Assembly (NCBI GenBank): GCA_025936045.1
Contig: JAICUB010000015.1
Span: forward strand, 30,642-94,641
Direction of reading: 5' to 3'
DNA: 64,000 bases
Source: Polyangiaceae bacterium
GTDB lineage: Bacteria; Myxococcota_A; Polyangia; Polyangiales; Polyangiaceae
Positions 32,102 to 55,773 of the stretch are shown piece after piece; position 1 is the first letter of the stretch, and the number at the start of each line of letters is the position of its first letter. The notes under the pieces were generated by a model. The model did no database searches. It was not told the DNA's origin and was given only the letters and a program-made list of their open reading frames with translations. Position numbers and translations under genes: made by a program.

Positions 32102-33001
32102 ATGTCCCTCACTCATCTCGAACTCCTCGAAGCCGAGGCCATTCAAATCATGCGCGAGGTCGTCGCCGAGACCGAGAAGCCGGTGATGCTCTACTCGATC
32201 GGCAAGGACAGCGGAGCGATGCTCCACCTCGCGAAGAAGGCGTTCTACCCCGCGCCGCCGCCCTTCCCGCTGCTGCACGTCGATACGACCTTCAAGTTTC
32301 GCGACATGTACACGATGCGTGATCGCATGGCCGCCGAGAGCGGGATGGAGCTCTTGGTTCACAAGAACCCCGACGCGATTGCGAGGAACATCAATCCGTT
32401 CACGCACGGCTCCCAGGTTCACACCGACACCTGGAAGACCGAGGGGCTCAAGCAAGCGCTCGACAAGTACGGCTTCGACGCCGCCTTCGGCGGTGCACGC
32501 CGCGACGAAGAGAAGTCGCGCGCGAAGGAGCGCGTGTTCTCGTTTCGCAGCGCACAGCACCGCTGGGATCCGAAAAATCAGCGCCCCGAGCTCTGGCGCC
32601 TCTACAACACGCGCAAGCAAAAGGGCGAGTCGATCCGCGTCTTCCCGCTCTCGAATTGGACCGAGATGGACGTGTGGCAGTACATCTATCTCGAGGGCAT
32701 ACCGATCGTGCCGCTCTACTACGCGGCCGAGCGCCCCATCGTGGAGCGCGACGGCGCGCTCATCATGGTCGACGACGACCGCTTGCCGCTCAAGCCCGGT
32801 GAGAAGCCGCAGCAGCGCATGGTGCGCTTCCGCACGCTCGGTTGCTATCCGCTCACTGGCGCCGTCGAATCCACGGCGACGACGCTGCCCGCGATCATCC
32901 GCGAGATGCAGGCGAGCGAAGTTTCCGAACGCCAAGGTCGCGTGATCGACTACGACTCACCCTCCTCGATGGAGCAGAAGAAGCAGGAGGGTTATTTCTG
33001 A
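32102..33001 (+). CDS. cysD: Sulfate adenylyltransferase subunit 2
   Basis: [41 protein letters not shown]. Confidence 0.97.
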
Positions 33002-34905
33002 TGCGCCCCAATGCACAAATCGACACGGCGATCGACGCGGACCTCCGCGTAGCGAAGAGCCTGCTGCGTTTCAACACCTGCGGCAGCGTCGACGACGGCA
33101 AGAGCACGCTCATCGGCCGCATGCTGTTCGAGTCGGGCGTGATCCCGAAGGATCAGCTCGCGGCGCTCGAAGCCGACTCCAAGCGCGTCGGCACGCGCCC
33201 CGGCGAGCTCGATTACGCGCTTCTGCTCGACGGCCTTTCCGCCGAGCGCGAGCAGGGCATCACGATCGACGTGTCCTACCGTTTCTTCGCCACGGACAAG
33301 CGCAAGTTCATCGTCGCCGACACGCCGGGGCACGAGCAGTACACGCGCAACATGGTGACGGGGGCCTCGACCGCCGACCTCAGCATCATCTTGATCGACG
33401 CGCGCAAGGGCGTACTCACGCAGACCCGCCGCCACAGCTACCTCGTGTGGCTGCTCGGCATCCGCCACGTGGTGCTGGTCGTGAACAAGATGGACCTCGT
33501 CGACTACTCGAACGACGTGTTCGCGAAGATCGAGGCCGACTACCGCGCGTTCGCCGAACAGCTCGGCTTCGACGAGATCACGTGCATCCCCGTCTCCGCC
33601 GTCCGCGGCGACAACATCATGAAGCACTCGACGGCCACGCCTTGGTATCAGGGTGCGACGCTGATGGGCTTGCTCAACGAGGTACAGGTCGATCATTCGC
33701 GCCTGCGGAACGACCCGCTGCGTATGCCCGTGCAATGGGTGAACCGCCCGAACCTCGATTTCCGCGGCTTCGCGGGGACGATCGTGGCCGGCACGGTCAA
33801 GCCGGGGGACATGGTGCGCGTCCAGCCGTCGAACAAGACGACGAAGGTGTCGCGCATCGTGAGCTTCGACGGCGACTTGCCGTCGGCGACGGTCGGACAA
33901 TCGATCACGCTGACGCTCGCCGACGAGGTCGACGTCTCGCGAGGCGACTTGATCGTCACGGCGGATTCGCCGGCCGAAATCGCGAACCAGTTCGAGGCGA
34001 CGGTCGTCTGGATGAACGAAGGGCCGTTGCTTCGCGGCCGGACCTATCTCTTGAAGATCGGCACGAAGACGGTCACGGCGACCGTCGGCGCGATCAAAAA
34101 CAAGATCAACGTCAACAACCTCGAGCAAGTTCCCGCCCCGACCCTCGGGTTGAACGAGATCGGCGTCTGTAACCTCGAGCTCGATCGGCCCATCGCTTTC
34201 GACGCGTACAAGGTGAACCGCGATACCGGCGGCTTCATCCTGATCGATCGCATGACGAACGATACGGTCGGCGCGGGCATGCTGCACTTCGCGCTGCGCC
34301 GCGCGCAGAACGTGCATTGGCAAGCGCTCGACGTGAACAAGCAGGCGCGCGCCGCGATCAAGGGGCAGAAGCCGTGCTTGCTCTGGTACACGGGCCTCTC
34401 CGGTGCCGGCAAGTCGACCATCGCGAACCTCGTCGACAAGAAGCTCCACAGCATGAACCGCCACACGTACCTGCTCGACGGGGACAACGTGCGGCACGGC
34501 TTGAACAAGGACCTCGGGTTTACCGCGGCCGATCGCGTCGAGAACATCCGCCGCATTGCCGAGGTGGCAAGGCTCATGGTCGACGCGGGGCTCATCGTGA
34601 GCACGGCGTTCATCTCGCCGTTCCGCGCCGAGCGCGAGATGGCACGCTACCTGCTCCCGCCGGGCGAGTTCATCGAGATCTTCGTGGATACACCGCTGTC
34701 CGTCGCCGAGCAGCGCGACCCGAAGGGCCTCTACAAGAAGGCGCGCCGGGGCGAGCTCAAGAACTTCACCGGCATCGACTCCCCGTACGAAACGCCGGAG
34801 AAGCCCGAGCTACGCATCGACACGACCCTGCTGTCGCCGGAGGCCGCGGCCGAGCGCGTCGTCGCGTTCTTGCAAGCGCGCGGAGCGCTCGAAGGTCCGG
34901 CGTGA
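33001..34905 (+). CDS. cysNC: Bifunctional sulfate adenylyltransferase subunit 1 / APS kinase
   Basis: TGATG coupling with cysD; [28 protein letters not shown]; kinase [27 protein letters not shown]. Confidence 0.97.
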
Positions 34906-35867
34906 CGCTGTTTTACGCGTTCAACGGCGACGCGGACGGACTCTGCGCCCTCCAGCAGCTCCGGCTCGAAGACCCGCGGACGAGCACGCTCGTCACGGGC
35001 GTGAAGCGGGACATCGAGCTCGTCGCACGCGTCCCGGCGAAGGCCGGTGACGAGTGCGTCGTGCTCGACGTGTCGCTCGACGTGAATCGCGCCGGGCTCT
35101 TGGCCGTGCTCGCGGCGGGCGCCAAGGTTCGGTACTTCGACCACCATCACGCGGGCGAAGTGCCGAACGACCCCGGCCTCGAGCCGCACCTCGACCCGAG
35201 CCCGACGGTGTGCACGAGCCTGCTCGTCGATCGGTATCTCGGCGGGCGGCGGAGGCTCTGGGCCGTCGTCGGGACGTTCGGCGACAGCCTGACGGAGGAA
35301 GGCTCCGCGCTCGCTCGCGAGGCCGGGCTCTCCGACGCCGACGCGCGGTCGCTCAAGGATCTCGGCGTGTGCATCAACTACAACGCTTACGGCGAGACCG
35401 TCGCGGATCTGCACGTACCGCCCATGGCGCTCGCGGAGGAGCTGCGCCCGTTCGAGGATCCGCGGGAGTTCGCGCTCAAGTCCGCCACGTTCCAGCGCCT
35501 CCACGACGGCTATCGACACGACATGCAGCTCGCCGCGACCCTCGCGCCGGAGCGCTCCGCGCCGGGCGCCGTGCTCTTCATGCTGCCGGACGAAGCGTGG
35601 GCGCGCCGCGCGAGCGGCACCCTCGCGAACGATCTCGCGAAGGCGCACGCGGGCAGCGCCGTGGCGATCGTATCGCCGAAGGCACAGGGCGGCTTCCTCG
35701 TCAGCTTGCGCGTCCCCAAGGAGTCGAGCGTCTCGGCCGAGTCGTTCGCGCGTCGCTTTCCGACGGGCGGCGGACGGCGCACGGCCGCGGGGATCAATCA
35801 CTTGCCGGCGCCGGAATTCGAAGCGTTCGCGACGGACTTCACGCGCGAGTTCAGGGCACAGCCGTAG
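34902..35867 (+). CDS. DHH-family phosphoesterase (candidate PAP phosphatase)
   Basis: GTGA overlap with cysNC; FNGDADG, VLDV, YFDHH, C-terminal VSLR..GGGR..AAG. Confidence 0.75.
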
Positions 35868-35928
35868 TCGCGGCTGCACAGGGAAACCGCCGCCGCCTAG
35901 CCGGACGGGTCGTATTCTAACGCGCCAT

Positions 35929-35951: not shown

Positions 35952-36035
35952 TTATTCTGAGTAATTTCAAATAGTTGCTCAATAACTTGATAAGTTTGGT
36001 TGACAACCTGGGCGGGTCGCCGCAGCTTCTTAGGC

Positions 36036-36794
36036 ATGGCTTCATTGAAGCTCGTCGACTCTGCAGCTCCTGAAATCGATCTGGACGCGCTGAACGCCCG
36101 CTTGGCTGACGCTCCCGCGAAGGCGGTGCTCGAATGGGCGCGCGAGGAGTTCGGCGATCGGCTGATCCTGAGCTCGAGCTTCGGGGCCGAATCCGCGGTG
36201 ATGTTGCACCTCGCCAACGAGGTGATCCCGGGCGTCCCGGTCGTCTTTCTCGATACGGGGTACCTCTTCCCCGAGACGTATCAGTTCGCCGAGGAGCTCA
36301 CCGAACGGCTGAACCTGAACCTTCGCGTCTATAACCCCAAGCTGACCGCAGCACGGCAAGAAGCGCTCTACGGCAAGCTGTGGGAAGGCGACGAGCAGGA
36401 CCTCGCTCGCTACAACGAGCTCAACAAGGTCGAGCCCATGGATCGCGCGCTCCGCGAGCTCGGCGCCCGCGCATGGATCGCTGGGCTACGCGGCAACCAG
36501 AATTCGTTTCGCTCGGGCTTACGCCCGGTCGAGCTCCAAGCCGGCATCTACAAGGTGCACCCCATTCTCGGCTGGGACCGTGAGAAAATTCACCACTACC
36601 TCCGTAGCAACGATCTCCCGTATCACCCGCTCTATCGCCGCGGGTACCGCTCGATCGGTGACGTGCACTCGACGCGGCCGGTCGAGGAGGGCGAGGACGC
36701 GCGCTCGGGCCGGCGGCTCGGCGTGCACAGCGAGTGCGGCTTGCACCTGCCACGGCTGAGCTCCGAGGAGAGCCTCAAATCGAGCGGGCTCTGA
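36036..36794 (+). CDS. cysH: PAPS reductase (Fe-S-free type)
   Basis: SSSFG, LDTGYLFPETY, NKVEP lacking the CC pair, GYRSIGD, ECGLH. Confidence 0.93.
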   Translation: MASLKLVDSAAPEIDLDALNARLADAPAKAVLEWAREEFGDRLILSSSFGAESAVMLHLANEVIPGVPVVFLDTGYLFPETYQFAEELTERLNLNLRVYNPKLTAARQEALYGKLWEGDEQDLARYNELNKVEPMDRALRELGARAWIAGLRGNQNSFRSGLRPVELQAGIYKVHPILGWDREKIHHYLRSNDLPYHPLYRRGYRSIGDVHSTRPVEEGEDARSGRRLGVHSECGLHLPRLSSEESLKSSGL

Positions 36795-36999: not shown

Positions 37000-38139
37000 A
37001 TGAACAGCGTGCTCTCACGAATGGGTCGGATCTACGGGGTGCTTCGCAAGACGCACCACGTCTACGTGGTCCCGCTTTTTGTCGCCGTGCTCTTCGGGTT
37101 TCTCCGGACGCTCGTGGCGGTGAGCATGGCGCTCGATCACGTCTTTTTCCCGCGGTTGAACCGCACGAAGGCCACTCGCCCCATCGTGCTGGTCGGTAAC
37201 CCGCGCACCGGAACCACGTTCCTGCAGCGCTTCCTCTCCGACAACGGCTTCGGCGCCGGCATGGAGCTCTTCTTGATGCTCTATCCGTCGCTGCTCTTGC
37301 AGAAGATGCTGAGCCCCGTCCTTCCGCTCTTGGAGAAGCTCTCGCCCGCGAAGTTCCATTCCACTGAGGCGCACCAAACGAGCCTGAGCTCGGTGGAGAC
37401 GGACGACGTCGGAGTGCTGTTCCGCTACCTCGACGGCTTCTTTCTCTACGGCTTCTTCCTCTCATTCGAAGAGCGGGACGCGCTACGGCAGTTCGACCCG
37501 CGCGTGCGCGACACGTCCGCGCGCGACTACGGCTGGCTCGACGCGCTCTGGCGCCGCAGCCTCGTGCTGCATGGGGCCGAGCGCAACATCGCCAAGTTGT
37601 TCTCGGTGTCGGTGCGCATCCCCTCCTTCCTCGAGCGCTTTCCCGAAGCGCAGATCCTCTACATGGCGCGCGATCCGCTCTCGATCATCCCGAGCGCTAA
37701 CAGCCTCGTCATCGGCGTGCTGGACCGCGCGTTCGGCTTCTGGAGCCTGCCGGAAGACGTGAAGAAGCGCTGGCTCGACCGCATGTACCAGGCTTGGATC
37801 CTCCTCTTGCAGAAGTTCCACGAGGATTGGACGACCGGCGCCATCGACAAGAGCCGCGTCTACGTCGTGCGCTACGACCGCATGATGCTCGACCTCGAGA
37901 ACGTGATGGCCGAGATCTGTACCTTCCTCGGCAAAGAGCTGACGCCCGAGCTCAAGGCGACCGTGCAGAAGCAAGCCGACAAGCAGCGCGCCTACGAGTC
38001 CGAGCACAAGTACAACCTCGCAAAGTACGGCCTGACGGAAGAGCAGATCCGGAAAGACTGCGCCTTCTTCTACGATACGTTCTTGCCGCCCTGGGCTCCG
38101 CCCGGTTCGAACGGCGATTCGCTCAAGAAGTCGGCGTAG
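37000..38139 (+). CDS. PAPS-dependent sulfotransferase with hydrophobic N-terminus
   Basis: 5'-PSB loop IVLVGNPRTGTT, FPEAQILYMARDP...S (3'-PB), VRYD, H.YNL..YG. Confidence 0.9.
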   Translation: MNSVLSRMGRIYGVLRKTHHVYVVPLFVAVLFGFLRTLVAVSMALDHVFFPRLNRTKATRPIVLVGNPRTGTTFLQRFLSDNGFGAGMELFLMLYPSLLLQKMLSPVLPLLEKLSPAKFHSTEAHQTSLSSVETDDVGVLFRYLDGFFLYGFFLSFEERDALRQFDPRVRDTSARDYGWLDALWRRSLVLHGAERNIAKLFSVSVRIPSFLERFPEAQILYMARDPLSIIPSANSLVIGVLDRAFGFWSLPEDVKKRWLDRMYQAWILLLQKFHEDWTTGAIDKSRVYVVRYDRMMLDLENVMAEICTFLGKELTPELKATVQKQADKQRAYESEHKYNLAKYGLTEEQIRKDCAFFYDTFLPPWAPPGSNGDSLKKSA

Positions 38140-38230: not shown

Positions 38231-39064
38231 TCAGGGCCGCTCGAGGTACCGAGTCGTGAAGTAGTCGTCCTTCGTGTCGGGAGCGAGGGCGATTTTCTCC
38301 GACTTGAAGATCGACTTGCGGCCGTTTTGCTTGTTCACCATTTCCATGGTGAGGGGGCGGTAGCGCTTGTTCTTCGGGTCGAGGAGCTTCACGTCGCTCG
38401 TGTTGAGCTCCTTCAAGAGCTTGCCGCCCAGGTCGAAGAACTGCGTGCGGCGCACGGTGTAAGTGGCCTTGCTGATCCACACCGTCTTCTTCGAGTAACC
38501 CTCGCCCTCGCCGGTCGCCTTGTCCTTCGGCATCACGTCGATGACGAAGCAGGGCTCGCCGCCCGCGTTCTCTTCCTTCACGAGGTTGTAGGTGTACTCG
38601 TCGAGCGACGGCACGCCGAGGTCGCCGAAGGAGAACTCACTGCCGAGGAACGCCTGGTTGCGCTGCGAGCTCACGATGCGGCGCGTCTTGCGCAGGGCCG
38701 GGAGGAAGATCCACGTGTCGTCGGGCTTCGCGTCGTAGTCGAACATCAAGACGCCGGTGCCCTTCACGTCGGCGGGCGCCGTAAAGCGCACGATGCGCTT
38801 TTCCGTCTTGCCGCCGTCGAAGAGCTTGGTCGCCATCGTCATCTCGCGTTCGCGAGTGGAGCCCTTGTCGTCGCTCATGATCATCTTCACGACGGCTTCC
38901 GACCCGTCGAGCTTTCGGGCCTGGAGCGACTTATCCATGATGTCTCGCGGTGACGGGCCGGCCGACGCATCGCCTCCGCCCATCAAGAACCCGAGGCCCA
39001 TGGCGGCGGCCAATCCCAAGCTAGCGATGCTCTTCCTCACGCGACGATCCATCATCTTCGACAT
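38231..39064 (-). CDS. LolA-like outer-membrane lipoprotein-sorting family protein
   Basis: RFTAPADVKGTGVL, DDTWIFLPALRKTRRI, FLGSEFSFGD, FTTRYL. Confidence 0.88.
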   Translation of the reverse strand: MSKMMDRRVRKSIASLGLAAAMGLGFLMGGGDASAGPSPRDIMDKSLQARKLDGSEAVVKMIMSDDKGSTREREMTMATKLFDGGKTEKRIVRFTAPADVKGTGVLMFDYDAKPDDTWIFLPALRKTRRIVSSQRNQAFLGSEFSFGDLGVPSLDEYTYNLVKEENAGGEPCFVIDVMPKDKATGEGEGYSKKTVWISKATYTVRRTQFFDLGGKLLKELNTSDVKLLDPKNKRYRPLTMEMVNKQNGRKSIFKSEKIALAPDTKDDYFTTRYLERP

Positions 39065-39250: not shown

Positions 39251-40858
39251 TCAGAAAGACATGCGGAGCTCGGCGTAGCCCGCGCTGAGCTCGGAGCGGA
39301 TGACGCCGAAGAGGGTGTTGGTTGGGCCTTCGTAGATTTCGGCGCCGACCGTCGCGCTCAGGTTGTCCGTGAGGGAGTAGCCGATCTTCGGGAAGAGCAG
39401 CCACTCTTGCGTGGTGAAATTGACGAACGCGAGCGCCGACGCGGAGAGCGTCTGGTGCAGGGTCAACCATTCGAGGCGCAGGGACGCCATGTGCTGCTGC
39501 TGGGCGAGTTGGGAGAAGAGGATTTGGTTCTTGCTTCGGAGGACGGCGAAGAGCGTCGGATCGACGGCGGCTGGATCGCTGAAACGCCCGAGGAGGCTCG
39601 TATCTGGGTTGAAGGCGGGGTACTTCGTGTAGTTGAACACGTAACGCCCGATGTATTGAGCGATGACGCTCACGTCGCCGAACGTATGGTCGAGACCGAG
39701 AACGTATTGAACGTCCGGGTTCGGCGCATACACCTTCTCACGGAAATGGACGGGGTCGCGATACGCCGCCTCACCACGAACGCCAAGCCAATCCCCGAGC
39801 GTCGTCGCAAAGTCGAAACCGACGACCTGCTGGTTGTACGCGGCCCGGGTGATCACGGCTTCCGCGGTGAGGGTGGATCCCAGATCTCGGTACTCCAGAA
39901 GCGTCAAGCCCGGCAGCGGTGCATAGCCGTACACGTACGACGCCGACATCTCGACGGCTGGCAACTCGAGGTGCAAACGTGCGCCCTCCGTGCCGTTCTC
40001 GATGCGGGGGCGCGGGTATGTCGAATCGCCGAGTACCGCGCGGTCGGGTAGTGGCAACGGCGGCAGCTCGGTCGCTTCATAGAGCGGCATCCACACGCCT
40101 TCGAGCCGAAACGGCGAGAAATTCAAGAAAGCGCGGGCACCCACGTTGCCGACGCGCCGGTCGTCCTCGATCGGCGAATGGATGCGGAAATCGACGGGCG
40201 TGATGTTGCTCGTCGGATTGAGCGCATCCGCTCGCCCCCACACCACGATTTGCTTGCCGAGGCGCAAATCAAGAGGGCCGGCGTAGAGGTTCGCGTACGC
40301 TTCACGCAGGTCGACGATGAGACCTTGAGCGTTGCCCTGCAGCCCGTAACGGAAGCGAGGCTCGGCGTACGCGTCGCCGAGCTTGTCCTTCTTCACCTTC
40401 AGCTTGAGGGAGAGCTCGGAATACGCGGCCTTCATCTCCGCGTGGTTCGCGTGCTGTTCCTTGCCGACGAAGACGTCACCGCGAACGTAGCCGTTGAACT
40501 CGTATCCAGTCTCGGCTGGCGCTTCGCCCGCGCCGCTCCCGCTGCCACTGCTCGAAGTGTCCTGACTCGCCTCGAACAGACCCGAGCCCGTCGACACCTG
40601 GCCGCCCGAATCGGCAGAGCCCGATGCCGCATCGGCAGCTGCCCCCGCTGCCGCAGGCGGCGTGGACGCAGCGTCACTCGGCGAAGCCGGCTTCGTGTCG
40701 CTGGGCGGTGCCGCGGGCGGCGGCGTCTCTTTCCGCGCATCCGGGGCGGGGCTTGGAACGGCAGGCTCCTGCGCAACAGCGACCCTGCTTGAAAGAACGA
40801 GCGCGCACGCAAGGCACACGCCCGCGCTGCGCCCACGGAGTGAGGCTTTGGGATTCAT
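39251..40858 (-). CDS. DUF1302-like outer-membrane beta-barrel protein
   Basis: Signal peptide, LREAY, LRLGKQIVVWGRAD, terminal ELRMSF. Confidence 0.75.
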   Translation of the reverse strand: MNPKASLRGRSAGVCLACALVLSSRVAVAQEPAVPSPAPDARKETPPPAAPPSDTKPASPSDAASTPPAAAGAAADAASGSADSGGQVSTGSGLFEASQDTSSSGSGSGAGEAPAETGYEFNGYVRGDVFVGKEQHANHAEMKAAYSELSLKLKVKKDKLGDAYAEPRFRYGLQGNAQGLIVDLREAYANLYAGPLDLRLGKQIVVWGRADALNPTSNITPVDFRIHSPIEDDRRVGNVGARAFLNFSPFRLEGVWMPLYEATELPPLPLPDRAVLGDSTYPRPRIENGTEGARLHLELPAVEMSASYVYGYAPLPGLTLLEYRDLGSTLTAEAVITRAAYNQQVVGFDFATTLGDWLGVRGEAAYRDPVHFREKVYAPNPDVQYVLGLDHTFGDVSVIAQYIGRYVFNYTKYPAFNPDTSLLGRFSDPAAVDPTLFAVLRSKNQILFSQLAQQQHMASLRLEWLTLHQTLSASALAFVNFTTQEWLLFPKIGYSLTDNLSATVGAEIYEGPTNTLFGVIRSELSAGYAELRMSF

Positions 40859-41914: not shown

Positions 41915-42283
41915 CAGCTAGCTCCGCTCGGGCGGACGCCACATACCATCTGGCGGTGTTTTTCGGGGGAACGACGTCCGGTGGACTAAAAAGAATAGGC
42001 CCCGAAGCCGCCTCTGTCGAGGCAGCAGTGCTGCAAAATGACACTCATACCTTGTCGCACCGCAACACCATGAAACACACCAGCCGCGCCTCCGCGGAAG
42101 TGCTTCGGGTTACCCACTCGGGTCGGGATGGGCGGGTTCATTTTGTGACGCGAGAGGTCGCACCACCAGTCGGACGTTCTTCGCGCGTGTCCCGATGCCC
42201 GAGGCGCGCCGTTCGTATTCGCAACGCACACCGGTGTGCGATCGCGCCTGGCCTTGCCGCCTGCTCTGGGGTTAACTCCCGCC

Positions 42284-46928: not shown

Positions 46929-48389
46929 ATGCATTCTGGGAGGACTTCCGTGGCTCGACTCTTCGCGGGCTTCACTATCAGGGGTGGTGTGCTGTTCGCC
47001 GCCGTTGCGACGTTCGGCTGCGGTAGCTCGAAGTCCAGCGACGGGACTGCCACGGACCAGGAGCCGGTAAGCTGGAACGGCAATATCGCGCCGCTCGTCG
47101 CGAAGAAGTGCGTCGGCTGCCACCAGACGGGTGGGATCGCGCCGATGTCGCTCGAGTCCTACGCGTCGGCGAAGCCCTACGCACGCCAGATGTTGGCCGA
47201 GGTGGCCGCCGGAGCGATGCCGCCGTGGAGCGCACGCACCACGGACGAATGCACGCCGCCGTACGCGTTCAAGGACGACCCGACGCTCAGCGACGACGAA
47301 ATGAGTCAGCTCAAGGCCTGGGTCGACAACGGAGCGATCGAGGGCGCGGCGTCGAACACTCCGCTGCCGGTGCCCGCACAGCGGACGCTCGATAACCGCG
47401 ATCTCGAGCTCACGATTCCGACGACGATCAACGTCGACGGCGGGTCGGACCAGCTGCTCTGCTTCTCGCTCGATCCGAAGCTCGACCAGGACGCATGGGT
47501 CAACGGCGTGCAGGTGAATCCCGGCAATCCCGAGATCGTGCACCACGTGCTCCTGTTCTCCGATCCGCAGGGGCAAAGCATAGAGCTTGCGGGCGACAAG
47601 GGTTATTACCCCTGCTTCGGTGGACCAGAGCTCGAGCCCAGCCCGGACGGGCCGTCGTTCGCTCTGCTCGGCGCGTGGGCACCCGGCGGCGTGCCGACGG
47701 TGACCCCGCCCGACGTCGCGATGCAACTCCCCGGCGGCTCGCGCCTCGTCATGCAGGTCCATTACCATCCGCACGACGGTGTCCACAGCGGGGCGGACTC
47801 GAGCACGAGCGTCGACCTGCGCTTCGCGCCCACCGCGCCGCGACTCGTCGGAAAACTAGCGCTGCTAGGCAATATCTCTCAGCAAGATTGGGACAAAGCC
47901 GGGGGCGAGGGCTACGGCTTGATGCCCGGGCCGGACGATCCGCCTCCGCCCGCCAAGGCCGAGTTCTCGATCCCGCCGAACGTCTCCGGCCACACGGAGA
48001 CCGAGCGCATCCTGATTCCTGAAGAAAAGGGCGTGAAGGATTACCTCGTCTGGGGCATCGCCACGCACATGCATTACGTCGGGACGGACATGAAAATCGA
48101 CCTGGTCCATTCCGACGGCTCGAGCGATTGCCTGCTGCAAACCCCCCAGTGGGATTTCAACTGGCAGCGTGTCTATTACTACGACACGCCGCTTGCCTCG
48201 GCTCCAGTCGCCAACTTCGGCGACGTGATTCAGATGCGCTGCACTTACGACAACACCATGAACAATCCGCAAGTCGTAACGGCGCTCGATCAACAAGGCC
48301 TCACCGCGCCGAAGACGGTGACGCTCGGCGAGACGTCGCTCGACGAGATGTGTCTCGGAGCGTTCGGCTTCGCGGTCGAAGGTAAGTAG
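46929..48389 (+). CDS. Copper type II (PHM-like) monooxygenase lipoprotein with N-terminal CxxCH
   Basis: Lipobox TFGC; CVGCH..GGIAPM..MPPW; VHH, QVHYH, THMH, WDFNWQ, EMC. Confidence 0.85.
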   Translation: MHSGRTSVARLFAGFTIRGGVLFAAVATFGCGSSKSSDGTATDQEPVSWNGNIAPLVAKKCVGCHQTGGIAPMSLESYASAKPYARQMLAEVAAGAMPPWSARTTDECTPPYAFKDDPTLSDDEMSQLKAWVDNGAIEGAASNTPLPVPAQRTLDNRDLELTIPTTINVDGGSDQLLCFSLDPKLDQDAWVNGVQVNPGNPEIVHHVLLFSDPQGQSIELAGDKGYYPCFGGPELEPSPDGPSFALLGAWAPGGVPTVTPPDVAMQLPGGSRLVMQVHYHPHDGVHSGADSSTSVDLRFAPTAPRLVGKLALLGNISQQDWDKAGGEGYGLMPGPDDPPPPAKAEFSIPPNVSGHTETERILIPEEKGVKDYLVWGIATHMHYVGTDMKIDLVHSDGSSDCLLQTPQWDFNWQRVYYYDTPLASAPVANFGDVIQMRCTYDNTMNNPQVVTALDQQGLTAPKTVTLGETSLDEMCLGAFGFAVEGK

Positions 48390-48476: not shown

Positions 48477-49544
48477 TCAGTTCGCGCACGTCTTGAGCAC
48501 GGCCAGGTACCAGGGCGCCGGGTTCGTGCACTGCTCGGTGCAGTTGAGCGCGACGATCCACGTGTGCGTGCTGTCGATGCCCGGGAAGGCGGCGCCGTTC
48601 GGATCCTTCGTCTGCGACAGATCGAACGTCGTGCCGGCCGTGACTTCGGCGCTGTACATCGTGTCCGCGATGGTATCGAGGTTCAGGAAGTTCGTCTTGT
48701 CCTCGAGGTCCGTGGCGGACTTCGAATATTTGCCGACGCGGATCTGCGTGACGTAGGTCGGCTCGAACACGAGGCCCGCCGCGGTCTTCGTCATATTCGT
48801 CCAGTCGACCTTGATCGCGGGCGTGCCTGCGGGAACGGTGAACGCCGTCTGCGAGTGCAGGTCCGCCGTGAGCGAGAGCTGAGTCGAATCCGACGTGACG
48901 TTCACCTGCGTGTTGGTCACGGTCGGATCGAAGCTGAAGCCCGCGATCATGCGCGTGCCCTTGCCGTACGTCATGCCGTCCGCGAGCATCACCGTGTAGA
49001 GGTGGGTGTCGGGGGGGTACGTCGTCGTGTCGAGATACGGGTCGATCTGATCCTTCCTATAAGGAGCGCCCATATCCGTGAGCTGGTAGATGTCGCCCGA
49101 GGTGGTCCCGGGGGCCGGCACGATCGAAGCGATGATGGCGAGATCCGACTGGCCGAGCGCGTCGTCGTTCAGCTTCTTCTCGAAGTTCGCCTGCGTGAGA
49201 TTCCAGAGCTCGACCTCGACCATACCGATCGTGCTGACGTCGAGGTCATGGCCGAGCAGATCCTTTTTGACTCCGCTCCAGTCGAACTTCACGTCGGAGC
49301 CCGTTTGAACCTTCGTCACGTCGACCGTCAAGGAGCTCGAGAACTTGTAGTTGGTCGCGTCGCTCGCCGTGAGGTTCGTCTCGCACATCGCAGCGGGCAT
49401 GCCGCCCGAGCCGCCGCTGCTCGTACCGCCGCCGCTGCCGCTCGCGCCGCCGGTGCCCTTCGAGTCGTCGTCCCCGCCGCTGCTACAGCCTGCGAGGGCA
49501 ACGACAAATCCCACCAAAGAAGCTCTAATCGCTCGGTGCATCAT
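48477..49544 (-). CDS. Uncharacterised lipoprotein, NPAP family, paralog 2
   Basis: Start MMHR at 49544, lipobox LAGC, DWS/DWT repeats, TWIVALNCTEQCTNPAPWYL. Confidence 0.8.
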   Translation of the reverse strand: MMHRAIRASLVGFVVALAGCSSGGDDDSKGTGGASGSGGGTSSGGSGGMPAAMCETNLTASDATNYKFSSSLTVDVTKVQTGSDVKFDWSGVKKDLLGHDLDVSTIGMVEVELWNLTQANFEKKLNDDALGQSDLAIIASIVPAPGTTSGDIYQLTDMGAPYRKDQIDPYLDTTTYPPDTHLYTVMLADGMTYGKGTRMIAGFSFDPTVTNTQVNVTSDSTQLSLTADLHSQTAFTVPAGTPAIKVDWTNMTKTAAGLVFEPTYVTQIRVGKYSKSATDLEDKTNFLNLDTIADTMYSAEVTAGTTFDLSQTKDPNGAAFPGIDSTHTWIVALNCTEQCTNPAPWYLAVLKTCAN

Positions 49545-49581: not shown

Positions 49582-51246
49582 TCACTTCGGGGGCAACCCG
49601 TACAGCGTCGGACGCCAGATGATGTAGCCCGTTGCACCGCCGGTGCCCCAGCTGATCTCCTGCAGCATGTTCTTGCCGTTGTCGACCTGGTGAATTTTGC
49701 CCTGAGTCGAGTAGGTCACGAGCGTATTCCCGTTCGGGAGGCGTTGGACATCACCCATGACGGCGTTCGCGATCACCGGGGACGCCGTGTACTCCCACAA
49801 CTTGGTGGCCGTCTTCGCGGTCGTATCCAGCTGAAGCTCGATGGCGTTCGAGCCGGCGCCCGGCGCGCCGTTGTTGAACATGAGAATGTGGTTCGCGCCG
49901 AGCACCTCGAGGTTGTGCTCGACCTGCCACGTCGCGGCGTCACCCGTAAAGTCGTTGTCGCTGCCGCCCCCGAGGACCCATACGACCTCGCCCGTGCGCT
50001 TCATCTTCACGTATGCGTTGTGATCGAGCTCCGAAACCACGAGGGTATCGTCTTCCTTCGAGTACTCGACCGCATTCGCGTGGCACGCGCCGCTCGTGAA
50101 CGCCTTGCTGAGGTTCATGACGGTCGTCGTCATGCCCGTGGACGGAACGTACTGCTTGATGTCATCGCACGACGCGCCGCCCTGACCGTAAGCGATGAAG
50201 TACATCGTCTCGTCGGGCAGAATCGTAAAGTCGTGGTTCATGTTCGCGAACTGCATGCTCATGTCCACGGCGCCGGTGCCGTCCATGTTGACCCTGACCA
50301 TGTGCCCCGCCTGCGACGGCACGTTGCCGTGGCCGATCCACATGTACTTCCCGTCGGAGCTCATGCGCGCGCGCGTCAAGTCGCCGATCTTCGGGTCGAA
50401 CCACCAGACGACGTCGTTGTCCTTGTCCATGATGAACGCGATCTGCTTGCCCGCGTACCACTCGCCCACCATGAAGCCGCCAGCGAGCTTGGTCGCGTCC
50501 TTCGTCGTGATCGCTCCCTTCGGAATGCCGTTCGCGGCGGGACCGGTCATGAGCGTCTGATCCTCGCCCGTGCACGTGCTTCCTCCGCTGCTCACGACGA
50601 CGCGGTAGTGGTACGGCTTGCTCGGCTTCATGCCGAGGAGGAGCGTGCCCTTCGTGTCCGTCAGATCGACGGGAGCGGTGTAGCCGTAGGTCGTATCGAG
50701 GCCGAAGTCGATGTGCGCCGCGTCGACGTTCGCCAGGTCCGTCGTGTAGGTCACGGTGAACACCGTGCCGATCGCGGTGCTCTGCGTCGCCGTCGGCGTG
50801 ATCTTACAGCTCGCGGGCGTCGTGCCGCCGGCGCCCATGCCGGCGCCGCCCATCATGGTGCCGCTGCCGGCGCTGCCACCCACGCTGCCCCCCGTGCCCA
50901 TGCCGGCGCCGCCCATCATCATGCCGCTGCCGCCGGTCGTGCCACCTGTCGTGCCACCGGTGGTAGCGCCCGTGCTCCCGCCGGTGCCGCCGGTGGTCCC
51001 ACCAGCGCCGCCCGTCGCGCCCGAACCGCCCGTGCTGCCACCCGTGCCGCCGGTCGAGCCGCCCGTGCCGGGAGGCCTACCTGCGGTGCCCGAGCCGCCG
51101 GTACCGGTCATGTTCATGGTGCCGCCCGCGCTCGTCTGCGAGCCGCCGGTTCCGTCAGGGGTTTGGGCGCTATTGCCGCACGCCGCGGCAACGAGCGCGG
51201 CGCTCGAAGTCAGGAACAACACGAGGGGAAGGTTCGAGCGGATCAT
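49582..51246 (-). CDS. Arylsulfate sulfotransferase (ASST)-like lipoprotein
   Basis: Lipobox AAAC, GGT linker, LLGMKP..YHYRV, NHDFTILPD, HANAV, EHN, GDVQRLPNGNTLV. Confidence 0.8.
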   Translation of the reverse strand: MIRSNLPLVLFLTSSAALVAAACGNSAQTPDGTGGSQTSAGGTMNMTGTGGSGTAGRPPGTGGSTGGTGGSTGGSGATGGAGGTTGGTGGSTGATTGGTTGGTTGGSGMMMGGAGMGTGGSVGGSAGSGTMMGGAGMGAGGTTPASCKITPTATQSTAIGTVFTVTYTTDLANVDAAHIDFGLDTTYGYTAPVDLTDTKGTLLLGMKPSKPYHYRVVVSSGGSTCTGEDQTLMTGPAANGIPKGAITTKDATKLAGGFMVGEWYAGKQIAFIMDKDNDVVWWFDPKIGDLTRARMSSDGKYMWIGHGNVPSQAGHMVRVNMDGTGAVDMSMQFANMNHDFTILPDETMYFIAYGQGGASCDDIKQYVPSTGMTTTVMNLSKAFTSGACHANAVEYSKEDDTLVVSELDHNAYVKMKRTGEVVWVLGGGSDNDFTGDAATWQVEHNLEVLGANHILMFNNGAPGAGSNAIELQLDTTAKTATKLWEYTASPVIANAVMGDVQRLPNGNTLVTYSTQGKIHQVDNGKNMLQEISWGTGGATGYIIWRPTLYGLPPK

Positions 51247-51308
51247 CGAGATCTCCTTTTGACTGTCTCAGAGCGGGCGAGCAGGGGCGGCAAAGTCGAA
51301 CGCGAAAC

Positions 51309-52121
51309 TCACATTGACGAGGGAGCGGGGCTGTCGGCGCAGCTGGCGCCGACACTGGTGATGGGGCTCACGGTGTGATCGTCAGCCAAGATCGCGCCGA
51401 GGTCCGTGGCTTGAACGGTGAGGCACGTCGGCGTGTCCGTCGCCGACGCGTTCGGGCACGGCTCGCACTTCACTTTGCAGCTGTCGTCCATGCACGTGGA
51501 CAGCGTGTAGTGCTCGCTCAAGGCCTGGCACACTGACGCCGCGTCGCGCGTGGGGCCGAGCGAGGCGAACAGGATGTAGAGCTGCTTGAAGTCCATCGTC
51601 GCTTCGAGCGTTCCGCTGGTCGACGTCGTGCCGCCGTTCGGGAAAACGTTGCTGAACTTGAGATTGAAAACGTCGGCAGTCACTTGCAACGGAGGCGTCT
51701 GTGAGGCGTTGATGACGTGCAGCTTCATCTGAGGAACGGTCACCGAGCCATCCGCGCCGACAGTCGCCGTCGTAGTCGGACCGCAGGCGTCTTGCTTGAT
51801 CTGCTCGGGGGGCAATGCGACGGGGTTCTTGTCCGCATCCAGCATCGTCGCCGTGCCGTAGCCAAGCGTCGTCGTCTGATTCGAGCCGCTGCCCTGGATG
51901 TCGAACATGAACGCTGGCGCGACGCCGAACAGGTCGGCTCCGACGCCACGTGGCACTGCCCAATCGCCCTTTTTGATCGAGAGCAGGTAGCGATGCCCCG
52001 ACCAGCTCGCGTCGTTATTTTTCGAAGAGTCATCGTCGCCGCTCGAGCAGGCGGCGAGTGGAATCGAGATGAGACAGAGTGCAACGGCGGTCGAGAAACG
52101 CTTGAGCATGTTTGTATTCAT
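51309..52121 (-). CDS. Cys-rich hypothetical lipoprotein
   Basis: Lipobox LAAC; C-terminal Cys cluster; first gene of the ASST-2 operon. Confidence 0.75.
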   Translation of the reverse strand: MNTNMLKRFSTAVALCLISIPLAACSSGDDDSSKNNDASWSGHRYLLSIKKGDWAVPRGVGADLFGVAPAFMFDIQGSGSNQTTTLGYGTATMLDADKNPVALPPEQIKQDACGPTTTATVGADGSVTVPQMKLHVINASQTPPLQVTADVFNLKFSNVFPNGGTTSTSGTLEATMDFKQLYILFASLGPTRDAASVCQALSEHYTLSTCMDDSCKVKCEPCPNASATDTPTCLTVQATDLGAILADDHTVSPITSVGASCADSPAPSSM

Positions 52122-52397
52122 TCTTCCGGGCCGTGATGGTGCCCGCTATCCGGGGACCTTAACACGCGCGCCTCTACCGTCACGTCAGCGCGATCACGCA
52201 GAGCTCGAGCTTCTTGGAAAAGTACAGCGCGGGAGCGTGAGTTTTCGCTCCGCGATCACGCTCTGCCGGGGCATCGCTTCTTAGTCGCTGGTAACGAAGC
52301 TCGGCGTGGAGCAGGCGCGCATGGCGGGAACGATGTGATCCGGAGAGTAAGGAGACAAATTGACGCCGCCACTCTCAATCCAGCAGCTGGCGCTGAT

Positions 52398-52420
52398 TAG
52401 TCCATTGAATAACTAGGCTT
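52398..52420. promoter_or_regulatory. 7-9-7 palindrome upstream of the ASST-2 operon
   Basis: TAGTCCA-TTGAATAAC-TAGGCTT. Confidence 0.65.
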
Positions 52421-52703: not shown

Positions 52704-53855
52704 TCACTTACACGTCTTGAGGACCGTGAGGAACCAGGGCGCCGGGTTGCCGCAGTACTTCGGGTCGCAGAAGAGCGCCATGATCCAGGTCCCCGAGTCG
52801 TCGATGCCCGGGAACGGGTTCATCTGCGCGTCCTTGAGACCGGAGAGCGACATCGGGTCGTCGGACGGGACGTACGCGCTGTAGAGCGAGGAGGCGATCG
52901 TCTCGAGATCGAAGAACTGATTCTCGAGCTCGGTCAGGCTCTGCGTGTAGTGGCCGACCGTGAGCTTCGTGATCGAGCGTGCCTCCCACGTGCGGCCGAG
53001 GCCGTTCGTCGTGAGACCACTCCAATCGACCGTGATGTTGGGATTGCCCGCGGGGAGCCCGATCGGCGTGAGCTTTTGAAGCGAGGTGTCGTAAGTAACG
53101 TTCATACTCGGACCGGTCGTCCCGCCGGTGTGACCGTTCGCGCCCGCAGCGGTGCGCGTGTTGGAGCCGAGTGCGAGGCTCGTCGTCGTCGACGCGGTGT
53201 CCACCGTGAAGACCTGAATCATGCGCGCGCCACTGCCTGCGTCCGTGCCAGCGGAGGGCATCAAGGCGAGGATCGTCTTGCTCGGATCACTGACGGCGGG
53301 GTTCAGGTAATCGTCCACGCCCTTCTTCACGTCGGCCGACGTCTTGTAGGTGTTCTGCGGCTGCGTGGGGACGCCGAAATCCTCGAGGTTGCCCTTCGTG
53401 AGCATCTTGTTCGTGAGGAGCTGGAGCGCGCCCTGGTTGAATTGCGTGAGGGTGCCGTCGTCGGCGTTCAGGTGCTGCTCGAACTGGTCGACCGTGAGGC
53501 TCAAGATCACGAGCAACGTCGAGTCGATGTCCTTCGCCGGGTCCATCTTCCGGCCGAGGAAGTCCGTCGTCACGCCCGACCAATCGAAGTCGAGGTTCGG
53601 CTCGTTCGCCTTCACCTTCGTCGGAGTGAGCGTGATGTTACTCGTGAACGTATAGTTGTTCGCGGCGTTGAGGGTTGCCGTACTGCCCGTGACGCACTGA
53701 GGAGCAGTCCCCGAACCGCCGCTTCCCGATGACCCGCCCGTCGCACCGGTGCCGCCGGTGCCCGCATTGCCGCCGGCTCCGGAGTCATCGTCCCCGCCGC
53801 CGCTGCACGCGAGAAGGAAAAAGGGAACGAGCGCAACGAGGAATTTGGAACTCAT
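52704..53855 (-). CDS. Uncharacterised lipoprotein, NPAP family, paralog 3
   Basis: Lipobox LLAC, two DWSG repeats, TWIMALFCDPKYCGNPAPWFL. Confidence 0.8.
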   Translation of the reverse strand: MSSKFLVALVPFFLLACSGGGDDDSGAGGNAGTGGTGATGGSSGSGGSGTAPQCVTGSTATLNAANNYTFTSNITLTPTKVKANEPNLDFDWSGVTTDFLGRKMDPAKDIDSTLLVILSLTVDQFEQHLNADDGTLTQFNQGALQLLTNKMLTKGNLEDFGVPTQPQNTYKTSADVKKGVDDYLNPAVSDPSKTILALMPSAGTDAGSGARMIQVFTVDTASTTTSLALGSNTRTAAGANGHTGGTTGPSMNVTYDTSLQKLTPIGLPAGNPNITVDWSGLTTNGLGRTWEARSITKLTVGHYTQSLTELENQFFDLETIASSLYSAYVPSDDPMSLSGLKDAQMNPFPGIDDSGTWIMALFCDPKYCGNPAPWFLTVLKTCK

Positions 53856-53899
53856 GTTCGGTGCAAGTAACTAGCAGCGAAGCTTCGGAGAAACCAGAC

Positions 53900-55669
53900 T
53901 CATAAGCGCGGCGGCGGACCGTAGAGGGTCTCACGCCAATTGGCGTAACCGCCGGGACCGCTGATGGTCTGGACGAGGTTCGCCGCCGTGGGGTCGATCT
54001 CGTGGATGACGGAAGCCGTGGAGAACGTGACCAGCGTGTTGCCGTTCGGCAGGCGCTGCACGTCGCCGAGCACCGAGCTCGTCGTGCCGGGCGAGTACTT
54101 CGGCGGGTTCGCGGGCGTCGCAGCGAAGGTGCCCGTCTCCGTCAGCTTGTAGAAGAACGCGGTCGAAGCGCCGCTCTGCCCGTTGTTGAAGAAGAGGAAG
54201 GTGCCGTCATCCATCATGTCGTGCCCGTGGTTCACCTTCCAATCACCGGGGACGCACTTCGGAGCGGGCGCGCCGGTACAGCTGCCGCCGAATTGCCAGA
54301 GCACGGCCCCTGCGTGGCTGAGCTTCACGAACAGGTTCGGGTTGCGATCACCGACCGTGTAGCTGTCGTCCTTCATGTGATAGTGGATGGAGTTGGCGTG
54401 GAAGGTGCCTGACCCGCCGCCGAGGCCCGAGCCGCCCTGGTAGATCTTCGAATCCACCGTGACGATCTTCTTCACGGTGCCCATGTAATCGGACTCGAGC
54501 AGATCGCTCGGCTGATCGCCCGATTGCTGGATCCACGACATGCACGCGGCCCTGCCGTCCGGCAGCACGGTGAGGTCGTGGTGACAGTTCGACATGCCCG
54601 GGATCTTCCCGGTGCTCTGCAGGCCATCCATCGAAATACGGCGCAGCTCGCCGCCGTCCTTCGCCATGTTGTCGACGTTGAGCTCGACCATCCACATGTA
54701 TTGGCCGTCGTAGCTCATCTTCGCGCGACTACACGTCGCCGGTGCCGGTGCGAACCAAACGATCTCTCCGTCGGAGTCGAGGATGAACGCGTAGGAGCTA
54801 CCGCCGCCCATGCCGCCGCCGAACCCGCCACCGCCGGCTCCGAGCCCAGAGCTCGTCACGATGAAGCCCTTCTGCTGCATGGACGCTGCCGGGCCCGCGG
54901 TGCGCGTGATGCGCGGCACGGCGCTCGGAACGGCGCCGGTCTTGATCATGTAGTCCGGGCTCGTGCAGCTCGAGGTCCCGTTCGTCACGTTGATGTGGAA
55001 CGAGTACGTCTTCGAGCCCTTCATTCCGAGCAGCAGCGTGCGGAACATCGGGCCCGTCGCGACGTCGACGGGCGCCGTCATCGTGGTCGTGCCGCCCATC
55101 AGCGTAAAATCGATGCTCGCCTTCGTGAGGCCCGTCATGTCCACGGACCAGTTGACGATACCGACCGTCGGAATGCCGTTAGGGCCGGCTTGATCCGCCG
55201 TCTGCGACATCGTGGTGAAGGTGCAGTTGCCCGGCATCGCGCCGGTGCCCGCCGACCCGCCCGTCGTCCCGGCGCCAGCCGATCCGCCCGTCGTCCCGGC
55301 GCCGGCCGACCCGCCAGTCATCCCGGTGCCACCCGTGGCCGGGACGGTGCCGCCGGTGCCGTTGGTCGTCCCGCTCGCACCGCCGGTGGTCGGCGTGGTG
55401 CCGCCCGTCGTTCCCCCCGTCGAACCGCCCGTGCCTCCACTCGTACCACCGGTACCGGGCTTGTTTCCGGTACCACCGGTCGTCGCCCCGCCCATGCCCG
55501 TCTGGGTGCCGCCGGTGGTACCGCCCGTAGCGCCCGTGCCGGGGACGCCCGCCGCGCTCGTTCCGCCCGTTTGGCCCTGAGTAGAGGAGTCGGTCGACGC
55601 ACAGGCGAGGAACAGACCCGTCATCAATGCGGAACCGAGAACCAACCGAATGGAAGAAAACTGAGTCAT
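53900..55669 (-). CDS. Arylsulfate sulfotransferase (ASST)-like lipoprotein
   Basis: Lipobox FLAC, GGT linker, LLGMK, DGEIVW, HHDLTVLPDG, HANSI, DRN, NHG, GDVQRLPNGNTLV. Confidence 0.82.
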   Translation of the reverse strand: MTQFSSIRLVLGSALMTGLFLACASTDSSTQGQTGGTSAAGVPGTGATGGTTGGTQTGMGGATTGGTGNKPGTGGTSGGTGGSTGGTTGGTTPTTGGASGTTNGTGGTVPATGGTGMTGGSAGAGTTGGSAGAGTTGGSAGTGAMPGNCTFTTMSQTADQAGPNGIPTVGIVNWSVDMTGLTKASIDFTLMGGTTTMTAPVDVATGPMFRTLLLGMKGSKTYSFHINVTNGTSSCTSPDYMIKTGAVPSAVPRITRTAGPAASMQQKGFIVTSSGLGAGGGGFGGGMGGGSSYAFILDSDGEIVWFAPAPATCSRAKMSYDGQYMWMVELNVDNMAKDGGELRRISMDGLQSTGKIPGMSNCHHDLTVLPDGRAACMSWIQQSGDQPSDLLESDYMGTVKKIVTVDSKIYQGGSGLGGGSGTFHANSIHYHMKDDSYTVGDRNPNLFVKLSHAGAVLWQFGGSCTGAPAPKCVPGDWKVNHGHDMMDDGTFLFFNNGQSGASTAFFYKLTETGTFAATPANPPKYSPGTTSSVLGDVQRLPNGNTLVTFSTASVIHEIDPTAANLVQTISGPGGYANWRETLYGPPPRL

Positions 55670-55750
55670 GGGGTCTTTCTGCCAGTAACCGAAAAAGGAG
55701 AAGACGGGCCGGGTATCGCCGTCAATTTGCCGAAATATTTGGAAAGCGAT

Positions 55751-55773
55751 TAGTCCATAAAACGGGTGGACTA
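55751..55773. promoter_or_regulatory. Perfect 7-9-7 palindrome upstream of the ASST-3 operon
   Basis: TAGTCCA-TAAAACGGG-TGGACTA. Confidence 0.7.

Follow-up and report, generated by a model that had tools for sequence, protein, structure and literature searches.

The DNA considered here is a window of 64,000 nucleotides, contig C23:30642-94641 of a Polyangiaceae metagenome-assembled genome (MAG) of 6.37 Mb that is 86.6% complete. Within it lies a gene cluster in which a lipid-type ketosynthase (KS), a sulfotransferase (ST) that uses 3'-phosphoadenosine 5'-phosphosulfate (PAPS), genes for PAPS supply, lipid transport proteins and lipoproteins resembling arylsulfate sulfotransferases (ASSTs) are encoded side by side. 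Close relatives of the source organism carry Polyangiaceae or Polyangia labels in the NCBI and JGI records. Genes were called by third-position GC and then searched against the Pfam and NCBIfam profiles, and every gene named in the original prediction for this DNA was recovered in its place by profile search (Pfam), with the DHHA1 domain of one of them falling just below threshold. The genes of the cluster are as follows, in positions of the window.

32102-33001, plus strand: cysD, part of ATP sulfurylase (PF01507, E 8e-54)
32998-34905, plus strand: cysN-cysC fusion, here cysNC (GTP_EFTU and APS_kinase in Pfam)
34902-35867, plus strand: DHH-family phosphoesterase (DHHA1 at 22.8 bits, cut-off 25.9; DHH motif seen in the sequence)
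37000-38139, plus strand: PAPS-dependent ST, Stf-like (PF13469, E 1e-19, 72 bits against a cut-off of 27)
38231-39064, minus strand: LolA_like periplasmic carrier (PF17131, E 2e-54; signal peptide)
39251-40858, minus strand: DUF1302 outer-membrane barrel (PF06980, 38 bits against a cut-off of 23; signal peptide, C-terminal Phe)
40862-41914, minus strand: FabH-fold KS, OleA/PpyS-like (ACP_syn_III and ACP_syn_III_C in Pfam)
42236-43333, plus strand: P1, partner-family lipoprotein and paralogue of P2 and P3, overlapping ASST1 by 4 bp
43330-44700, plus strand: ASST1 (PF05935, 29.1 bits, cut-off 24.2; lipobox)
44697-46187, plus strand: FadL/TodX-family outer-membrane channel for hydrophobic molecules (PF03349, E 3e-18)
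46240-46863, plus strand: small lipoprotein (lipobox; no Pfam match)
48477-49544, minus strand: P2, partner lipoprotein of ASST2
49582-51246, minus strand: ASST2 (PF05935, 59 bits, E 5e-16; PF14269, E 8e-15; lipobox)
51309-52121, minus strand: X, a lipoprotein at the head of an X-ASST2-P2 operon (no Pfam or NCBIfam match)
52704-53855, minus strand: P3, partner lipoprotein of ASST3 (33% identity to P2; begins 44 bp past ASST3, same strand)
53900-55669, minus strand: ASST3 (PF05935, 44.5 bits, E 1e-11; lipobox)

The linkage of these genes was followed from the ST and from the KS. The ST was surveyed in 25 genomes from the genus, across 89 genera of the Polyangiaceae and in a fixed set of 151 genomes belonging to that family, and neighbourhoods of up to 40 kb around it were taken from 15 genomes, 5 of the same genus and 10 from 7 other genera. 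An alignment of the KS searched against species-representative genomes gave 129 relatives, the best 80 of which supply the loci for all counts out of 80 given below; counts out of 52 refer to the KS loci of at least 15 kb, where a neighbour is a gene within 10 kb of the KS. All of the 80 loci come from MAGs, and their taxon names below the phylum, where given, are those of Myxococcota, mostly Polyangia.

Orthologues of the ST (66-81% identity) are sparsely distributed: only 6 of the 25 genomes sampled within the genus have one, as do 13 of the 89 Polyangiaceae genera. The 151 genomes include 22 with the ST, and every one of the 15 in which a KS was found is among them. In the 15 genomes (8 genera) whose ST neighbourhoods were compared, the KS, the LolA-like and DUF1302 genes, FadL, P1/ASST1, ASST2/P2 and X all turn up nearby, in varying order and orientation. 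Among the 52 long loci, the neighbours of the KS include an ASST in 37, a partner gene in 38 and an ST in 35. Given a genome of 6.4 Mb that holds about 11 ASST genes and 6 partner genes, some 2-4% of loci would be expected to have an ASST or partner gene within 10 kb by chance; the observed frequency is about 70%, which places these neighbours roughly 20-fold over the expectation from copy number.

Gene order is strongly rearranged between loci, and some of the arrangements are compact. Two genomes (G117 and G171) carry a three-gene ASST-KS-ST operon, with an intact ASST active site, between unrelated housekeeping flanks. Another (G153) has the order radical-SAM gene, KS, ST and TauE exporter, with a 4 bp overlap of KS and ST, and a third arrangement (G112) is a KS-DUF1302-MMPL-ST operon. 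One locus (L116) is a co-directional array running ST-KS-...-FadL-DUF1302-MMPL-LolA-ASST. More distant ST homologues (37-39% identity) are found overlapping, or directly following, a KS gene that is itself 48-49% identical. Since the arrangements are so varied and include co-directional arrays, it is the linkage, not an inherited order, that appears to be under selection. Judged by these neighbourhoods, the co-location is not a matter of chance and the genes together form a single functional cluster conserved among uncultured Polyangia; a functional link between the modules is highly probable. The original prediction had staked itself on co-occurrence of the genes in other genomes, and across the Polyangia loci that co-occurrence is clear.

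The KS has the features of a head-to-head condensing enzyme, which bears out the earlier assignment as OleA-like. Its best solved match is OleA of X. campestris (3ROW, E 7e-17, at low identity), and in that alignment Glu105, within a YFEPATA motif, corresponds to OleA Glu117, while Cys130, His266 and Asn296 correspond to the Cys/His/Asn triad. E105, C130, H266, N296 and the YFEPATA motif are invariant in 12 orthologues. The inter-subunit Glu is the mark of KSs that condense head to head, among them OleA, which forms beta-keto acids, and PpyS, which forms dialkyl-4-hydroxy-pyrones (PMC4578411). The best NCBIfam model, PRK09258, is matched at 134.9 bits, under its cut-off of 285. The enzyme is not a type III polyketide synthase (PKS): its Pfam matches are ACP_syn_III, ACP_syn_III_C and Thiolase_N only, and the NCBIfam model DpgA reaches just 29 bits. 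No oleB, oleC or oleD was found in the window or among the ten profiled conserved neighbour families of open reading frames (ORFs) in the 80 loci, the rest of the genome not having been searched for ole genes. Because of the score below the PRK09258 cut-off, the missing ole partners nearby and the distinction from type III PKSs, the KS is filed as OleA/PpyS-like by its apparent mechanism, not as OleA. The predicted operon of the KS with the DUF1302-like and LolA-like genes is present on the minus strand, where the DUF1302 gene begins 3 bp past the KS gene.

Two observations on the KS in other loci may be recorded here. In 12 loci that lack DUF1302 (L109:10993-12510 and 11 others), a 505-residue calcineurin-like/PhoD-like metallophosphoesterase is encoded directly downstream of the KS. 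In the long-read MAG G021 (contig C5, loci L014/L133), the KS and ASST2 orthologues are each split by tblastn into two neighbouring pieces read in different frames; assembly indel errors, rather than pseudogenes, are the probable explanation.

The PAPS loop of the ST reads GNPRTGTTF; its GNPRTGTT aligns to GMPRTGTT of 2Z6V, and an RDP motif also aligns (2Z6V/2ZQ5). The best matches in the PDB are 2Z6V and 2ZQ5, which we take to be Stf9 and Stf1, and JGI gives the ST orthologues the name of Stf3 orthologue. An N-terminal hydrophobic window (Kyte-Doolittle hydropathy 2.0-2.7) with basic flanks is kept in the orthologues from large clusters and not in minimal KS-ST pairs; it is predicted to be a membrane segment, which would make the ST membrane-associated.

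Upstream of the ST, the genes for PAPS supply are closely packed, with a 4 bp overlap of cysD and cysNC. In 25 of the 80 loci one or the other is found no more than 10 kb from the KS. The DHH gene is present in 20 loci and sits directly upstream of the ST in 15 of these, whereas 8 loci have a CysQ-type gene instead; the two never occur together. Given this displacement, the DHH protein is probably a phosphatase for 3'-phosphoadenosine 5'-phosphate (PAP). The order cysD-cysNC-DHH-ST is co-directional in many loci, and by that arrangement it constitutes the conserved sulfur module. Sulfate permease and stand-alone APS kinase genes turn up in some loci, and all told 30 of the 52 long loci have some PAPS-supply gene within 10 kb of the KS. 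The cysD/cysN pair of the window is the single copy found in the source genome, so that the cluster there appears to adjoin the sole assimilation operon. In the family at large cysD is housekeeping, being present in 105 of the 151 Polyangiaceae genomes, and the nearest relatives of the window's cysD are in cluster-negative genomes. One relative (G112, contigs C14 and C10, loci L096 and L098) has three KS copies, two of which directly adjoin their own cysD(-cysNC), so the link between KS and PAPS supply is duplicated within a single genome.

Genes for lipid transport are regular neighbours of the KS. The LolA-like gene accompanies it in 53 of the 80 loci (39 of the 52 long ones), DUF1302 in 55 (40 of 52) and FadL, of which the source genome has a sole copy, in 48 (37 of 52). 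An MMPL transporter of 819 residues is part of KS-DUF1302-MMPL(-ST) operons in five genomes (G112, G054, G131, G137 and G017); its orthologue is found in 16 of the 52 long loci and an MMPL paralogue in 18, so that 34 have one or the other. By this recurrence the MMPL exporter is core in the relatives. It was found neither in the window nor in the nearest relatives, and the sole candidate in the source genome, itself 86.6% complete, lies on contig C13 and is a homologue of the paralogue, with 47% identity to it. The window accordingly holds DUF1302 and LolA_like, while the third component of such a transport module is present in relatives and in many of the 80 loci and has a distant homologue on C13. 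A further gene, for a 221-residue protein, lies between FadL and the paralogous MMPL in 26 loci (L076:6610-7275 and 25 others), in an operon P1-FadL-221aa-MMPL. The protein has no Pfam match and no homologue in the source genome, where that module is absent, and it was rejected as a counterpart of the small lipoprotein of the window, which is a different protein.

All three propellers exceed the PF05935 cut-off, as the original prediction of three ASST/partner modules required, and each lies next to a partner gene. Active-site columns were assigned by aligning the profile of the ASST family to Escherichia coli AssT (EcAST), with the H436N mutant entry 4P04 fixing the column of the catalytic His. 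ASST3 keeps the equivalents of His252, His356-x-Asn358, Arg374 and His436, and ASST2 keeps His252, His356-x-Asn358 and His436 with a Leu in the Arg374 column, so both retain the three active-site histidines. The prediction falls short at ASST1, where the columns of His252, His356 and His436 hold N, G and G and the equivalent of Arg374 is present; across the ASST1 orthologues most of these His positions are degenerate. The ASSTs of the ASST-KS-ST operons mentioned above (G117, G171) keep the EcAST histidines.

Among solved structures, 9KF6 matches the family profile best (E 1e-32), ahead of E. coli AssT 3ELQ (E 7e-25). 9KF6 is a Streptomyces ASST that acts on caprazamycin-type liponucleosides (bioRxiv 10.64898/2026.10.08.757629), and this proximity makes the comparison with the caprazamycin enzymes Cpz6, Cpz8 and Cpz4 more apt. 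ASST1 forms an operon P1-ASST1-FadL, overlapping each of its neighbours by 4 bp; many loci lack ASST1, and there P1 directly abuts FadL. In the source genome ASST-like genes number at least 11 and partner genes 6, with further pairs of the two on contigs C53 and C83. The pair is a recurring cassette, and for that reason its proximity to other genes within one window proves little.

The 11-mer GATTAGTCCAT precedes the ASST3-P3 operon as well as the X-ASST2-P2 operon (55745-55775 and 52385-52420). At ASST3 it falls within a perfect 7-9-7 palindrome, TAGTCCA-N9-TGGACTA, which is imperfect upstream of X, and it looks like a shared operator of the ASST operons. There is a candidate copy with 2 mismatches near an ASST paralogue on contig C56, and the other genome-wide matches (up to 3 mismatches) look random. 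The palindrome was not used as a link to cysH, upstream of which the match is just 6/7 and 4/7 positions. Past the ASST3 promoter region lie two adjacent SPFH/Band_7 genes (55891-57797), which were not found in the related loci. A scan of promoters and terminators gave nothing exceeding shuffled expectation, and an Rfam scan of 28-58 kb of the window returned zero matches.

P1, P2 and P3 are paralogues whose C-terminal ends read C-x3-C-x-NPAP(W/V), and, like the ASSTs, they have a lipobox followed by a long Gly/Thr/Ser linker. The true start of P1 is probably the ATG near 42284. Clustered at 50%, the family has 714 representatives and is without a Pfam match; within the 80 loci, the immediate neighbour of a family gene is an ASST in 37 cases and FadL in 29. 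An AlphaFold2 (AF2) model of P2, with a predicted local distance difference test (pLDDT) score of 90, consists of tandem beta-sandwiches. Foldseek against the PDB returned only generic Ig-like rows for this fold (TM score at most 0.18), and the best VIA-align match (Z 5.8, root-mean-square deviation (rmsd) 3.5, 104 residues aligned) gave no functional lead. Two longer family members, P0179 and P0262, were considered as fusions with an ASST and rejected, no Pfam domain being found in them.

The complex of the ASST2 propeller with P2 was predicted, with author-built alignments as input, at an ipSAE of 0.72, the best of 3 controls reaching 0.00. Among solved complexes 58 of 80 attain that mark, and among mismatched pairs 2 of 110. 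At least 86% of contacts agree between runs, the partner has a pLDDT of at least 90, and the interface residues, as listed, exclude the catalytic residues. The prediction supports binding of P2 by ASST2.

Two more lipoproteins appear, from their recurrence, to belong to the cluster as conserved additions. Homologues of X are present in 15 of the 80 loci, and its AF2 model (pLDDT 79) is a small beta-barrel; a ligand-binding role is not claimed for it, the avidin-like and lipocalin-like matches (Z 6.9, rmsd 4.2, 109 residues) lying in the range of noise. The small lipoprotein, which the original prediction had not listed, has a conserved EHSHTDANGT stretch and a ILEHSHTDANGT...PGNTFTRSGGP stretch, and a 63%-identical homologue family is found in 9 of the 80 loci. 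Two other genes of the window lie among or beside those of the cluster.

36000-36794, plus strand: cysH, PAPS reductase (PF01507, E 1e-54)
46929-48389: Cu2-monooxygenase-like protein (weak Pfam match; N-terminal CxxCH cytochrome c domain, a haem c motif; lipobox)

Both had been counted as parts of the system, and in neither case does the comparison agree. Only 3 of the 80 loci have a cysH gene at most 10 kb from the KS, and the one in the window is a local passenger beside the cluster. The monooxygenase, which has a paralogue of 29% identity on contig C47, was rejected as a member, being found in 2 of the 80 loci only.

How these components might act together is suggested by where their products are expected. 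The KS and ST have no signal peptide, while the ASSTs, their partners, X, the LolA-like protein, DUF1302 and FadL are all secreted or lipidated. With the pair in the cytoplasm and the remaining proteins beyond it, the product of KS and ST must cross the inner membrane. PAPS is found only in the cytoplasm. In the proposed sequence of events, the KS would make, in the cytoplasm, a lipid with an acidic hydroxyl, for which a dialkyl-4-hydroxy-pyrone of the PpyS type is chemically the simplest and likeliest candidate. The membrane-associated ST would then sulfate this lipid with PAPS from the adjacent cassette of cysD, cysNC and PAP phosphatase, and the sulfated lipid may move out by way of MMPL, the LolA-like carrier and the DUF1302 barrel. 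At the far side, the ASST lipoproteins, together with their predicted beta-sandwich partners, would take the sulfuryl group onto the catalytic His and pass it to acceptors. This would amount to the two-step Cpz6/Cpz8/Cpz4 sulfation of caprazamycin carried across a Gram-negative envelope. FadL, P1 and the histidine-less ASST1 could bind the spent carrier and return it.

The steps of this scheme are not equally secure. That the cluster makes a sulfated lipid for export is likely. Use of that lipid as donor by the ASSTs, which we infer by analogy with Cpz4, is plausible at somewhat less than an even chance, and much the same holds for the reading as a whole, in which an exported KS/ST sulfolipid serves the envelope ASSTs as sulfuryl donor; it comes close to an even call, leaning slightly the other way. 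More tentative is a full lipid-linked sulfate carrier cycle, with a KS lipid charged from PAPS, export by MMPL, LolA-like protein and DUF1302, discharge by heterodimeric ASST/partner pairs and recycling through FadL. The relay put forward originally, in which an OleA-made shuttle sulfated in the cytoplasm feeds the envelope ASSTs, has gained from the linkage of the triad, the ASST profiles and histidines, and 9KF6 as nearest structure; the ST product as donor is still a conjecture, and the MMPL exporter is not in the window.

Several observations weigh against this reading. About 30% of the long loci have no ASST within 10 kb, and most of the ASST-like genes of the source genome sit outside the cluster, from which it follows that the ASSTs also work without a linked KS and ST. 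No conserved candidate for an acceptor pathway was found among the profiled conserved neighbours in the 80 loci. ASST1 is, by its residues, catalytically degenerate, and the ASST2 clade is without Arg at the 374 column, where the alignment may be shifted by a residue or two. The KS differs from the type III PKS of the caprazamycin pathway, and a beta-keto acid of the OleA type would offer no obvious hydroxyl for sulfation. Export is a weak point in the source genome, MMPL being absent from the window and from its closest relatives. Finally, the related genomes behind the linkage counts are not independent samples, and every genome with the cluster is a MAG.

Much of the same evidence fits a sulfolipid that is itself the end product, an outer-membrane lipid, surfactant or signal comparable to mycobacterial SL-1 or S881, with the ASST/partner pairs and FadL remodelling, desulfating, recycling or sensing it, or acting on other substrates. 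KS and ST are the core that is always linked (15 of 15 genomes), directly adjacent in many loci of type B, and some loci have KS, ST and exporters with no ASST within 10 kb. The ST is Stf-like in its JGI name and in its matches to 2Z6V and 2ZQ5; mycobacterial sulfolipid is exported by MMPL transporters (PMC3318749); and no acceptor pathway is conserved among the profiled neighbours. This explanation is a real possibility, if less probable than the donor reading. Against it, ASST genes are found inside KS-ST or export operons in several distant lineages, these operon ASSTs keep an intact sulfuryl-transfer site, and the ASSTs known so far act as transferases dependent on an activated aryl or enol sulfate as donor, such as KS and ST could supply (PMC13426309).

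Traffic in the opposite direction had been offered as the alternative from the start: surface ASSTs would move sulfate from environmental aryl sulfates to a lipid carrier, which FadL would import for assimilation under sulfur limitation. FadL channels are importers, the cluster of the window abuts cysH and the sole cysDN copy, and the GATTAGTCCAT/7-9-7 palindrome common to the ASST3 and X-ASST2-P2 operons has a weaker look-alike upstream of cysH. But that look-alike is poor, cysH is rarely linked to the KS elsewhere, and MMPL/RND pumps are exporters. Moreover, the cysD-cysNC-PAP phosphatase-ST operon makes and uses PAPS and destroys PAP, the opposite of a reverse route from PAP to PAPS. Inward scavenging is accordingly disfavoured and very unlikely. 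It could also be that assimilation, lipid export and envelope lipoproteins are independent modules, held together by shared ancestry or island structure and with no common pathway. The housekeeping distribution of cysD and its closest kin in cluster-negative genomes would fit such a view, as would the ASST and partner genes elsewhere in the genome and the wholly comparative nature of the evidence, drawn as it is from related genomes. Against it, the linkage outlasts rearrangement over at least 8 genera and 80 species-level genomes, in three architectures with translational coupling in places; the KS is never without the ST in the 151-genome sample, and the neighbour frequencies are far above the copy-number expectation. 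Mere coincidence of modules is most unlikely.

A sulfolipid donor for the ASSTs has its closest precedent in caprazamycin biosynthesis of Streptomyces (Cpz6/Cpz8/Cpz4), where Cpz8 sulfates pyrones that are then donors for Cpz4 and where a condensing enzyme that makes the carrier, a PAPS-dependent ST and a PAPS-independent ASST form the same triad of co-encoded proteins (PMC4257720). That triad is found in the ASST-KS-ST operons described above and is widespread in the 80 loci, and by sequence the nearest solved enzyme to the ASST family of the cluster is the caprazamycin-type 9KF6. The differences are considerable. The condensing enzyme is a type III PKS there and a FabH-fold, OleA/PpyS-like KS here; the ASSTs of the window are lipoproteins outside the cytoplasm, each with a partner protein; and the cluster adds envelope lipid transporters (MMPL, LolA-like, DUF1302, FadL) and a PAPS cassette, with no antibiotic-biosynthesis genes. 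The adp cluster for sulfated adipostatin likewise combines a lipid-phenol condensing enzyme (a type III PKS), the sulfotransferase AdpST and dedicated PAPS genes (PMC12135136), but it is from an actinomycete, has a KS of another family and is without an ASST or an envelope transport module. Among mycobacterial sulfolipid systems, SL-1 (Stf0/Pks2/PapA/MmpL8/Sap) and S881 (Stf3/Cyp128) join an Stf-like ST to lipid synthesis and to an MMPL exporter (PMC3318749), which is found here in relatives. Those systems use other lipid-forming enzymes and have no counterpart of the ASSTs and partners, whereas the cluster belongs to a Gram-negative envelope with LolA-like, DUF1302 and FadL proteins.

Individual components also have their precedents. 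OleA and PpyS share the fold, the Cys-His-Asn triad and the inter-subunit catalytic Glu of the KS (PMC4578411); the KS differs from OleA in its low identity, its PRK09258 score and the absence of oleBCD-type genes among conserved neighbours, and from both in that its clade is always partnered with the ST. In Pseudomonas and its relatives, modules of DUF1302, DUF1329 (LolA-like) and RND proteins encode the same trio together and have been proposed to move a lipidic component of the envelope (bioRxiv 10.1101/2020.07.04.188060); here the trio is tied to KS, ST and ASSTs. The periplasmic AssT propeller of E. coli, with His252/His356/Asn358/His436, is likewise encoded beside a dedicated accessory gene (PMC13426309). 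That accessory is the disulfide oxidase pair DsbL/DsbI, while here the accessory is a lipoprotein of beta-sandwich fold for which binding to the ASST is predicted, and the ASSTs themselves are lipoproteins with long Gly/Thr/Ser linkers. A literature search found no description of a KS-ST-ASST or DUF1302-sulfotransferase system in myxobacteria. Each of the components has precedent; no description of the combination was found in the literature.

The physiological role of bacterial ASSTs, and their natural donors and acceptors, were described as poorly understood in a 2026 review (PMC13426309). For a large clade of these enzymes the cluster is a concrete candidate for the natural donor pathway, and it suggests a Gram-negative route to sulfating molecules beyond the inner membrane. 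Three unannotated protein families have been defined along the way: the ASST partner family with its 714 representatives, X and the small lipoprotein. If true, the carrier cycle would do for sulfate what undecaprenyl-phosphate-linked donors do for sugars and would supply the long-missing natural donor of the ASSTs; an envelope-spanning cycle of this kind, if real, would be a new category. The cluster has a wide distribution among uncultured Polyangia of soil and freshwater, and its product may for that reason be an abundant sulfated lipid that has so far gone unseen.

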